This document shows positions 16,615 through 29,346 of a DNA stretch of 64,000 nucleotides, one piece after another. Each line of letters starts with the position of its first letter. The first letter of the stretch is position 1. This DNA comes from Candidatus Bipolaricaulota bacterium (GTDB lineage Bacteria; Patescibacteriota; Patescibacteriia; UBA11705; DATKZF01). A model generated the notes under the pieces. The model had not been told where the DNA came from. It was given only the letters and a program-made list of their open reading frames with translations, and searched no databases. Made by a program: the position numbers and the translations under genes. The DNA is taken from NCBI GenBank assembly GCA_035528115.1, contig DATKZF010000002.1, positions 69,751-133,750 on the forward strand. Direction: 5' to 3'.

Positions 16615-16675
16615 TGAATTGCGAGGCTTGCGTATTTTTTTGTTTGTTGATATAATGGAATTCGTAACTATTCAT

Positions 16676-16810
16676 AAAACCAATAACAAGGCTGGCCATG
16701 CGGCCGTAAATATTCGTCATCCATAAAATTATATTTGTAACCATTTGTAATATAATTAATAACGCCAATAACCAAGGCTGGCCATGCGGCCGTAAATATT
16801 CGTAATGTAT
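16676..16810 (+). repeat. Two copies (period about 92 bp) of the motif AATAAC(C)AAGGCTGGCCATGCGGCCGTAAATATTCGT, ending at the rpmE start codon
   Basis: Direct reading shows ccaataacaaggctggccatgcggccgtaaatattcgt at about 16677 and gccaataaccaaggctggccatgcggccgtaaatattcgtaat at about 16767. It carries an internal GGCC-ATGC-GGCC hairpin. It belongs to the same family as the repeats upstream of rplK. Confidence 0.7.
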
Positions 16811-17081
16811 GAAGAAAGACATTCATCCGACATATTATAAAGACGCCAAAGTTACATGCGCTTGCGGTAACAGTTTTGTGACGGGCTCAAGCGAAAAAGA
16901 AATCAAAACCGAGCTTTGCTCCATGTGCCATCCGTTTTTTACGGGCAAACAAAAAATCATGGATACGGCGCGGCGAGTGGAAAAATTCAAAGACCGCCTG
17001 GCCAAAAAGACCACAACTGGCTCGAAAAAGAAAACCGTAAAAAGGAAAGTCAAAGATCAGAAGAAAAAAACCAAAAAGTAG
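16809..17081 (+). CDS. rpmE: 50S ribosomal protein L31 with Lys-rich C-terminal extension
   Basis: [10 protein letters not shown]...VTCACGNSF...[24 protein letters not shown] is the L31 core. The roughly 25-aa [25 protein letters not shown] tail is additional. Confidence 0.88.
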
Positions 17082-17150: not shown

Positions 17151-17280
17151 AAAACGGAGAGCGGAGAGACGAGCTCTCCGCTGGATTTGGAGGTGGCGGC
17201 CGGCGCCGCCGCGACAGCATCCAACCATTCCCAGCGGAAAGATTGCCTGCCCTGCCTGCCGGCAGGCCTTTCCGCGCTTA
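17151..17280. repeat. GC-rich palindromic intergenic element (copy 1 of 2), containing hairpins CGGAGAGACGAGCTCTCCG and GGAAAGATTGCCTGCCCTGCCTGCCGGCAGGCCTTTCC
   Basis: It sits directly 3' of rpmE and is likely also the rpmE terminator. It is near-identical in organisation to 62175-62297 after rpmA. The CTGCCTGCCGGCAGGC sub-palindrome recurs at 53536. Confidence 0.65.
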
Positions 17281-27946: not shown

Positions 27947-28489
27947 ATGCCAAAACAAATAGACCGAGGACGTAATTGGTACGTGATTCATACTTACTCC
28001 GGGTATGAAGAAAATGTGGCGGAAAATCTTCAGCAAAGAATCGAATCCATGGATATAGAAGACAAGATTTTCAACATCCTCATTCCCACGGAGAAAAAAA
28101 TAAAAATCAAAAACGGCAAACGAAAAATCGTGACGGAAAAAATATTCCCGGGCTATGTGATGGTGGAAATGATCGTTACCGATGACTCTTGGTATGTCGT
28201 CCGCAATACGCCGAACGTCACCGGTTTTATCGGCACTGGCAATACGCCGACTCCGGTTTCTGAAGCGGAAATCAAAGGTTTGAAAAAACGAATGGGCGTG
28301 TCCGATCCAAAATATAAAATTCCTTTTTCCGCCGGCGATCCGGTTAAAATCGTTGATGGTCCGTTCAAAGGATTTGACGGCAAAGTCGATGAAATTAATG
28401 AAGAAAAAGGCAAGGTTAAAGTTCTGGTATCCATGTTCGGCCGCGAAACTCCCGTGGAACTTGACTCTCTGCAAATAAAGGAGGTATAG
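27947..28489 (+). CDS. nusG: Transcription termination/antitermination factor NusG
   Basis: NGN domain (WYVIHTYSGYEENV) and C-terminal KOW (GDPVKIVDGPFKGFDGKVDEI). Confidence 0.9.
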   Translation: MPKQIDRGRNWYVIHTYSGYEENVAENLQQRIESMDIEDKIFNILIPTEKKIKIKNGKRKIVTEKIFPGYVMVEMIVTDDSWYVVRNTPNVTGFIGTGNTPTPVSEAEIKGLKKRMGVSDPKYKIPFSAGDPVKIVDGPFKGFDGKVDEINEEKGKVKVLVSMFGRETPVELDSLQIKEV

Positions 28490-28650
28490 TATTTTATCAT
28501 GGAGCACGTAACACGTATCACATATCACGTAACATGGAGCATTTTTACAAATTACATTCACCTATAGCTTTATACCTAAGAATATTGTAATTCGTAACAA
28601 ATAACCTGAAAGCTAAATAGAATATTGTAATTCGTAACAAAATTATTAAA

Positions 28651-28860
28651 CAATAAACCAAGGCTAGCTAACTAGCCGCAATAATTTGTAACGCAACGTA
28701 AACGTATTTGTAATTATTCGTAATAAAAGATTAACAATAAACCAAGGCTAGCTAACTAGCCGTAATAATTTGTAACGTAAACGTAAACGTATTTGTAATT
28801 ATTCGTAATAAACGATTAAAAATAAACCAAGGCTAGCTAACTAGCCGTAATAATTTGTAA
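28651..28860 (+). repeat. About 2.5 tandem copies (period about 84 bp) of a unit AATAAACCAAGGCTAGCTAACTAGCCGTAATAATTTGTAACG...GTATTTGTAATTATTCGTAATAAA, ending 3 nt before the rplK ATG
   Basis: Copies begin at about 28651, 28735 and 28820, the last truncated. Each contains the hairpin GGCTAG-CTAA-CTAGCC. They have the same architecture as the 16676-16810 repeats upstream of rpmE. Confidence 0.75.
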
Positions 28861-28863
28861 CAT

Positions 28864-29286
28864 ATGGCGAAGGAATTAATCACTAAAATCAAACTGCAAA
28901 TACCGGCGGGCAAAGCCAACCCCGCTCCCCCTGTCGGTCCGGCTCTCGGACAACACGGTTTGAATATCCAAGATTTCTGCAACAGATTCAATGAAGCCAC
29001 CAAAGAAAAAGGCGGCGACATCATCCCCGTGGAAATTTCCGTGTATAAAGATAGAACTTTTGACTTTATCCTGAAAACGCCTCCGGCCTCCACTTTAATC
29101 ATGAAAGCGGCGGGCATTAAAAAAGGCGCCAAAAATCCGTTGACTGATAAAGCAGGAAAAATCACCAAAGAACAAGTGCGACAAATCGCCGAAACGAAAC
29201 TGCCCGATCTAAACACAGACAATGTGGACAACGCCATGAAAACCATCGCGGGCACGGCCAGACAAATGGGCGTTAAAGTCGAATAA
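28864..29286 (+). CDS. rplK: 50S ribosomal protein L11
   Basis: [26 protein letters not shown] is the L11 signature. Confidence 0.92.
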
Positions 29287-29346
29287 TATAATTAATTAAG
29301 TGGGAGTTTCGCCGTTGCGCGAAACGATCGCACCACAACAACAAAT

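Follow-up and report, generated by a model that had tools for sequence, protein, structure and literature searches.

A tandem hairpin repeat at the rpmE and rplK start codons of a Patescibacteria genome is probably one module of a mosaic, BOX/BIME-like repeat family

Two ribosomal protein genes, rpmE and rplK, are each preceded by tandem copies of a short hairpin-bearing repeat in the window, i.e. the whole 64000-nucleotide stretch that was analysed (C2:69751–133750 of a 1,026,340-bp, three-contig genome with 42–45% G+C), which raises the question of whether this repeat is a regulatory RNA of ribosomal protein genes or something of wider distribution. The best relatives of the L11 protein encoded here, by tblastn (225 confirmed relatives), are found in Magasanikbacteria- and Parcubacteria-type MAGs, which places the bacterium in the Patescibacteria (CPR). 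The first-pass annotation had described tandem hairpin copies that end within 3 nt of the start codon at both loci, with common flanks and different hairpins; the sequence confirms both statements, with two copies before rpmE, three before rplK and a distance of 2 nt to the ATG in each case. We refer to the repeated unit as module B, a 33-nt sequence that consists of AAGG, a short palindrome and the word ATTYGTAAY, the last being termed the box.

The rpmE gene (ribosomal protein L31, 90 aa; 16809–17081, plus strand), which is a listed ORF, matches Pfam PF01197 with an E value of 5e-28. Upstream of it, a σ70-type promoter is predicted at 16628–16656 on the plus strand (TTGCGT, 17-nt spacer and TG-n-TATAAT), as a consensus match only (9/12 plus an extended −10) that is missing from the list of a stricter promoter scan. 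Judged from this consensus promoter, transcription would start at approx. 16660–16664, at the first box word ATTCGTAAC (16660–16668, plus strand), which opens the leader array. The first module B copy (16688–16720, plus strand; covariance model E 6e-4) comprises AAGG, a hairpin at 16690–16705 and a degenerate box ATTCGTCAT, and its core has a predicted fold of −8.4 kcal/mol. Two adjoining box words, ATTTGTAAC and ATTTGTAAT (16733–16751, plus strand), separate it from the second copy (16774–16806, plus strand; covariance model E 1e-7), which has its hairpin at 16776–16791 and ends in the box ATTCGTAAT at 16806, 2 nt before the ATG at 16809. The array thus holds two module B cores with a period of 86, each core being ordered as AAGG, the 16-nt GC-rich hairpin GGCTGGCCATGCGGCC, GTAAAT and the word typified by ATTCGTAAT. 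The rpmE hairpin variant also contains a three-codon mini-ORF (ATG CGG CCG TAA) 6 nt past AAGG, at 16698–16709 and 16784–16795; found at this locus only, it is probably coincidental. Logan contigs from three soil runs reproduced the rpmE copy junctions at a depth equal to the flanks, and as these runs are possibly the assembly's own source they do not amount to independent support. No copy-number variant or informative relative was found at either leader in the contigs of four DNA runs, which break at repeats; among public runs, the stretch was listed for these four and for no RNA run.

The rplK leader is longer and more composite. A promoter-like sequence at 28461–28490 on the plus strand (TTGACT, 18-nt spacer and TATAGT; 10/12 consensus matches) overlaps the end of a 180-aa ORF read as nusG, and is followed at 28495–28584 (plus strand) by other mosaic modules, namely a CACGTAACACG-type word pair (28495–28534) and an inverted box pair (28545–28556), which opposes the downstream direct boxes; copies related to these modules occur elsewhere in the genome. 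Two double boxes TTGTAATTCGTAAC, spaced by 40 nt (28585–28598 and 28625–28638; 28585–28638 overall, plus strand), then enclose a second consensus match to a promoter, GTAACA-18-TAGAAT, at 28594–28623 on the plus strand. This promoter-like sequence, which lies within the 40-nt double-box unit, is weaker, and at four loci (rplK, trpS, HD/OB and DUF4153) it precedes module B by 62–123 nt; at rplK the start predicted from it falls on 28630, where the 85-nt array begins. That array (28630–28861, plus strand; TRF: period 85, 2.7 copies, 93% matches) is built of units of a box, an A-rich linker and module B, and its three module B cores lie at 28660–28692, 28744–28776 and 28829–28861 on the plus strand (covariance model E 6e-11 to 3e-10), with the hairpin GGCTAGCTAACTAGCC at 28662–28677, 28746–28761 and 28831–28846. 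The last copy ends at 28861, 2 nt before the ATG at 28864 of rplK (ribosomal protein L11, 140 aa; 28864–29286, plus strand), a gene on the ORF list whose relatives have flanks that read as nusG-rplK.

The genome-wide search for the module pattern that had been proposed in the first-pass annotation was run, and the unit proved to be widespread: matching by pattern and by profile led to a curated set of 38 copies, which are spread over 25 loci and all three contigs. The composite module pattern has 23 exact matches in the genome compared with none for its reversed control, far beyond chance, and a covariance model built from the curated copies gives 43 genome matches at E≤0.01. In its fuller layout the module starts with the word and an A-rich linker of approx. 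12 or approx. 20 nt, continues with CC-AAGG and a short core that is often a palindrome, and closes with a second word. Only two of the 25 loci precede ribosomal protein genes, so that the family is not tied to such genes as had been supposed. Module B or a sister module lies directly upstream of a varied set of genes, which includes, in addition to those for L31 and L11, hpf (ribosome hibernation factor), an AMP/pyrimidine-phosphorylase-like gene, a VIT1 transporter, an HD/OB protein, atpB and atpC (ATP synthase subunits a and ε), tpiA, trpS (TrpRS), porA (pyruvate:ferredoxin oxidoreductase α), clpB, clpP, a NifU-like protein, an M50 peptidase, a PsbP-like protein and DUF4153.

This distribution bears directly on the proposal, also made in the first-pass annotation, of a ribosomal protein autoregulatory leader, in which L31, L11 or L1 would bind an rRNA-mimicking hairpin and repress its own operon. 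Both arrays in the window do precede ribosomal protein genes, and in E. coli L1 acts at the rplK leader. Yet the other 23 of the 25 loci are non-ribosomal, the starts of three further ribosomal protein operons (S10, S2 and L13) carry no copy, the two hairpins are unlike each other, and module B occurs in none of 60 related genomes, where the orthologous rplK and rpmE leaders carry other sequences. Rfam gave no match at the gathering score, and at E≤1 nothing over the rpmE region and only the unrelated Staphylococcus aureus Teg23 (E 0.85) over rplK; the relatives' rplK leaders gave no Rfam match. We consider this explanation very improbable, and module B is not a ribosomal protein regulator. 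A separate GC-rich hairpin that starts with GTGGGAG in the rplK-rplA spacer (window 29300–29336) could be an L1 autoregulatory site, and is a better candidate for one. Many relatives have a GCTTCTC motif in a stem of the nusG-rplK leader, which is missing both here and in the nearest relative, G001.

The second pillar of the RNA interpretation was that the hairpins seemed to co-vary between the two loci, an impression which rested on two independent sequences. Over all 38 copies, 71.1% of the cells of the proposed helix are paired, compared with 69.2% in shuffles that keep column composition, so that pairing is about what column composition leads one to expect. The covariation score was 0.141 compared with 0.108 in the shuffles, a value reached by 7 of 500 of them. 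Double changes fall in three pairs and five cells, two of which are the tandem rpmE copies and so represent one event. The sole clean double change in an inner pair, A-T to G-C in the rpmE variant, is genuinely compensatory, but this is insufficient to call a conserved RNA, and the hairpin is a subfamily palindrome. In addition, RNAalifold over the module B copies returned no consensus pair, and when the 38 copies were folded singly, 14 formed a strong hairpin (−5 kcal/mol or better), ten formed a weaker or shifted one and 14 formed none.

How the arrays arose is suggested by comparing their units, which are 83% identical within rpmE and 85–95% identical within rplK, compared with 61–69% between the two loci, each hairpin variant being private to one locus. 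Such high identity within and low identity between loci indicates that the arrays grew by local tandem duplication, which accounts for flanks that are alike and hairpins that differ without invoking selection on RNA structure. The multiplication of module B in situ at rpmE and rplK would probably have proceeded by slippage or by unequal recombination between the repeated words.

A further suggestion of the first-pass annotation, a small mobile repeat targeted upstream of ribosomal protein starts, comes closest to the truth, since module B is indeed a repeat that lies upstream of gene starts, but it is not specific to ribosomal protein genes and we found no evidence for its transposition. As a MITE it was rejected: it has no terminal inverted repeats, direct copies of the box bound it, and there is no clear target-site duplication. 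The box word is the internal junction of every other module as well, so that it is not readable as a target duplication. The transposase search, which covered PF01797 only, identified two Y1-transposase-like genes, at C3:95194–95496 and C3:130459–130725, both on the minus strand. Both are flanked by GC-rich palindromes of the GCGGAGAG...CTCTCCGC type, a separate repeat family with the look of a RAYT/REP pair, one palindrome of which lies right after rpmE (window 17160–17182). Mobilization of the AT-rich box family by a RAYT was rejected in turn, as both genes are flanked by this different family.

Module B is embedded in a much larger set of sequences that share its bounding word. ATTYGTAAY is the dominant intergenic repeat of the genome and joins all modules of the family: the word family numbers 374 copies, of which 313 (84%) lie in the 12% of the genome outside crude ORF calls, and for TTCGTAAC 171 of 186 copies are intergenic, within the same 12% non-coding share. 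The double word TGTAATTYGTAAY has 154 copies here compared with 0–21 across 30 relatives, and its reversed control has none. A box stands 9–29 nt upstream of module B in 36 of the 38 copies, the linkers between them falling into two classes of approx. 12 and approx. 20 nt, and a 3′ box closes the module in 37, the exception being the degenerate first copy at rpmE. Module B is found in combination with double-box units of 40 nt, centres of inverted boxes and further modules, and the arrays of the family include 85 nt×2.7 at rplK and 103 nt×5. The latter, at C3:611750–612157, consists of five tandem 103-nt units, the unit being composed of two other box-bounded modules, and lies upstream of a 262-aa gene. 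As in BOX and BIME repeats, modules recur in varied order and number, and the family is dispersed, non-coding, of high copy number and restricted to a narrow lineage.

Units of approx. 40 nt with conserved edges, a middle word and more variable segments between them are also what one would expect of a TIGR-type guide-RNA array, in which alternating short repeats and spacers are read by a Nop-domain Tas protein, and TIGR-Tas systems have been reported in Patescibacteria/CPR (PMC12045711; doi 10.64898/2026.09.09.750476). Such arrays adjoin a Nop-domain Tas gene and have alternating edge and loop repeats, unique spacers of approx. 9 nt and UG...CCA repeat ends (PMC12045711). Here no Nop-domain match was obtained in the genome at E≤1, although the Pfam model might miss a Tas protein of very divergent sequence; the arrays are scattered over many loci with two to three units each and are not clustered beside one gene; their interiors are shared family variants and not unique 9-nt spacers; and the UG...CCA repeat ends are not present. 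A guide-RNA array is accordingly a highly implausible reading.

Binding sites at the DNA level form a less remote alternative, in which the words, at spacings of 7, 10–11 and 40 nt and often in inverted groups, would be recognized by a DNA-binding protein peculiar to the lineage, either a global regulator or a protein of the nucleoid, and module B would be a spacer variant. The words follow one another at about one helical turn and diverge around centres, nearly all lie in non-coding DNA, and in relatives too the bare word is approx. 2.4-fold more frequent than its reversed control. We also counted in favour of this reading the arrangement GTAAY-N5-GTAAY, which we take to resemble the direct-repeat sites of OmpR/PhoB-type proteins. 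No protein could be named as a candidate, the 374 words in this 1-Mb genome far exceed a normal regulon, and the density of words, 3.05 per kb in same-strand spacers, falls to 1.6 per kb in divergent spacers, which are rich in promoters, and to 1.1 per kb in convergent ones. The conserved AAGG core and the phase of the module with the ATG would be left unexplained, and we regard protein-binding arrays as a doubtful and rather improbable explanation.

Taking the above together, we favour the view that module B is probably one module of a genome-specific mosaic of AT-rich, BOX/BIME-like repeats that occupy 5′ leaders, its function being unproven. Its apparent restriction to this genome was assessed by searching 60 related genomes, which include two of the same family at 97–98% completeness and none of the same genus, and no copy was found by either the composite pattern or the covariance model. 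A pattern scan of a metagenome collection gave 83 single matches without module features, approximately the number expected by chance. By these searches, module B appears to be confined to this Patescibacteria genome. In G001, a genome of the same family whose L11 is 86% identical, the rplK leader is approx. 95 nt long and lacks module B, but it keeps a promoter-like TTGACT-18-TATAAT at the same place, at the end of the upstream ORF. G001 has box-like words directly before the ATG of both rplK and rpmE, so the word itself may be an older functional signal. In relatives, different short words are present in the orthologous leaders of rpmE, trpS, tpiA and atpB. When 150 nt upstream of the same genes was viewed, G001 and a second relative, G019, had different short words of their own, in tandem and inverted groups that reach the ATG, such as ATCCGTAAY before rpmE and ATCTACC before trpS in G001. 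That short-word repeats might be a general trait of Patescibacteria rplK leaders was considered and set aside as unconvincing, with z>3 in 25% of 36 compared with 18% of 44 others.

The placement of module B is not random. A co-oriented gene start is faced by 34 of the 38 copies and at 22 of the 25 loci (for the loci, one-sided binomial approx. 8e-5 against a baseline of approx. 0.5), and at 16 loci the final box lies 0–9 nt from the start codon. Across the genome, a box word comes to within 12 nt of the start in 34 genes, the distances having a sharp peak at 2 nt (exactly this value in 12 genes), and in same-strand spacers 167 words are co-oriented with the genes compared with 89 opposed. The first-pass annotation had coupled random placement with stems that do not co-vary as the combination that speaks against an RNA element; the stems do not convincingly co-vary, whereas placement is non-random and directed towards gene starts.

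The setting of these starts is unusual in itself. A Shine–Dalgarno word is present at −18 to −4 in approx. 10% of 929 crude ORFs, although the 16S rRNA 3′ end (C3:324829 onward) has the usual CCUCC tail. T occupies −1 in 76% of 706 ATG genes, starts lie in A/T-rich DNA, and TAA/TAAT is 2–5-fold enriched right upstream of the ATG, in box-free genes too. The terminal word matches this start context of the genome (GTAAY, 0–4 nt, T and ATG), and, by the 11-nt period of the words, the ATG stands where another ATT would be due. Our literature search retrieved no paper on Patescibacteria together with Shine–Dalgarno and translation initiation. Two further ideas were considered and rejected. A promoter for leaderless mRNA does not fit, as module B contains no σ70-type −10/−35 pair and there is no genome-wide T peak at −7/−12; and although the box plus its following bases shares a 9-nt identity with a conserved 16S stretch near the 3′ end, it does so in the same sense, is not complementary and is within chance.

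One alternative is a functional RNA leader module, in which the boxes, with or without the hairpin, would form a Shine–Dalgarno-independent landing or standby site for ribosomes, or a stabilizing or processing signal, the latter also a candidate in the first-pass annotation, and the module would have spread from one housekeeping gene to another as a portable 5′ UTR. In addition to the co-orientation, the abutment of start codons and the sharp peak of box-to-ATG spacing at 2 nt, some other initiation signal must exist in a genome so poor in Shine–Dalgarno words, box-like words stand before rplK and rpmE in G001, the start codon is unpaired in the predicted leader folds, and housekeeping and stress functions are common among the genes. 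Against this, the hairpin is dispensable, as 14 copies lack one, among them copies directly before atpB and trpS; no consensus structure emerges, and the pairing is no better than in shuffles; whole leaders fold no better than shuffled sequence (z +0.32 and −1.33); all relatives express the same genes without module B; and most genes of this genome, other ribosomal protein operons included, start without it. We judge such a module to be a possible but unlikely explanation. A bolder version, which we put forward only tentatively and hold to be improbable, is that the box word and module B constitute a portable, Shine–Dalgarno-independent expression leader. On this view, housekeeping genes would obtain their 5′ UTRs by combining exchangeable repeat bricks, namely the promoter-like unit of 40 nt, a leader module and, at the end, the word that creates the TAA...T-ATG context; the bricks would attract ribosomes, or else an RNA- or DNA-binding factor specific to the lineage, and their copy number would tune expression.

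For a mosaic repeat that expands in leaders, which is the reading we prefer, the same placement would follow from what such leaders tolerate. At rpmE and rplK the modules may now make up most of the 5′ leader, between the predicted σ70-type promoter and the start codon. In a genome poor in Shine–Dalgarno sequences, with no Shine–Dalgarno spacing to protect, repeat arrays could be tolerated right up to the start codon, and because the terminal word supplies a TAA-rich context with T at −1, a leader made of modules would plausibly be tolerated there. In the opposite orientation the module would present a hairpin followed by a T-rich run, a predicted terminator-like arrangement that may be harmful in a leader. 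The minus strand of the three rplK copies does match the terminator consensus, with three matches found compared with 0.5 expected in shuffles; the minus strand of the rpmE copies gives no such match. At the three loci where module B faces a gene end, the copies lack a T-run on the other strand, and the idea of terminator avoidance is unsupported there. Positive selection for a function could equally have caused the orientation bias and the sharp box-to-ATG peak. The leader status of module B, its promoters and its harmlessness are all read from sequence and should be taken as putative.

Comparison with known systems places the family closest to modular interspersed repeats, with clear differences from each. 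The BOX elements of Streptococcus pneumoniae and Streptococcus suis have the structure boxA-(boxB)n-boxC (PMC3049150) and are likewise short, non-coding, interspersed and modular, with an internal module in variable tandem number and a distribution largely confined to one species group; for them, too, stem-loops are predicted if transcribed, and co-transcription with neighbours is predicted (PMC3049150). In contrast, a word of 9 nt links the modules here, where BOX has fixed A and C ends, and module B lacks terminal inverted repeats. Moreover, in pneumococcus the BOX, RUP and SPRITE repeats occur in excess downstream of genes and in convergent spacers (PMC3049150), the opposite of module B, which is directed towards gene starts. 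BIME/REP mosaics and REPINs of γ-proteobacteria, which are associated with RAYT, resemble the family as mosaics of short motifs in both orientations, intergenic and in high copy number, but REPs are GC-rich palindromes, mostly at gene 3′ ends and linked to the RAYT gene that they flank, whereas the box family is AT-rich. The BrickBuilt MITE/minisatellite of Porphyromonas gingivalis (PMC4596501) has internal tandem units (‘bricks’) in variable number, as here, but is a MITE with inverted ends, whereas for module B no inverted ends, clear target-site duplication or partner transposase was found. Correia elements of Neisseria (PMC3049150 and general background) are small repeats that are often co-transcribed with adjoining genes and may bring promoter-like sequences and processing sites that alter downstream expression; they differ in that they are not tandem modules but units of 100–150 bp, which have inverted repeats at their termini and a duplicated TA, and the rpmE and rplK leaders have no predicted long stem of the RNase III type. 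Finally, ribosomal protein leaders, e.g. the L1 site of the L11 operon, are alike only in position, as a structured element in the rplK leader; they are conserved across taxa, belong to one operon and mimic rRNA, whereas module B is genome-specific, occurs at 25 mostly non-ribosomal loci and has a hairpin that is variable or missing.

These results remove a tempting false lead, as the arrays before rpmE and rplK are not a new ribosomal protein leader RNA. They also indicate that a streamlined 1-Mb CPR genome tolerates, and perhaps uses, home-grown repeats that would build whole 5′ leaders up to the start codons. This position against the start codon is one that the classic interspersed repeats (REP, BOX and SPRITE) avoid, and orientation towards gene starts together with phase to the ATG is the unusual feature of the family. 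If the placement is functional, it would bear on translation start in bacteria poor in Shine–Dalgarno sequences and on the spread of new leaders within a genome; if it is not, the family would be a clean case of repeat expansion limited by the start codon alone.
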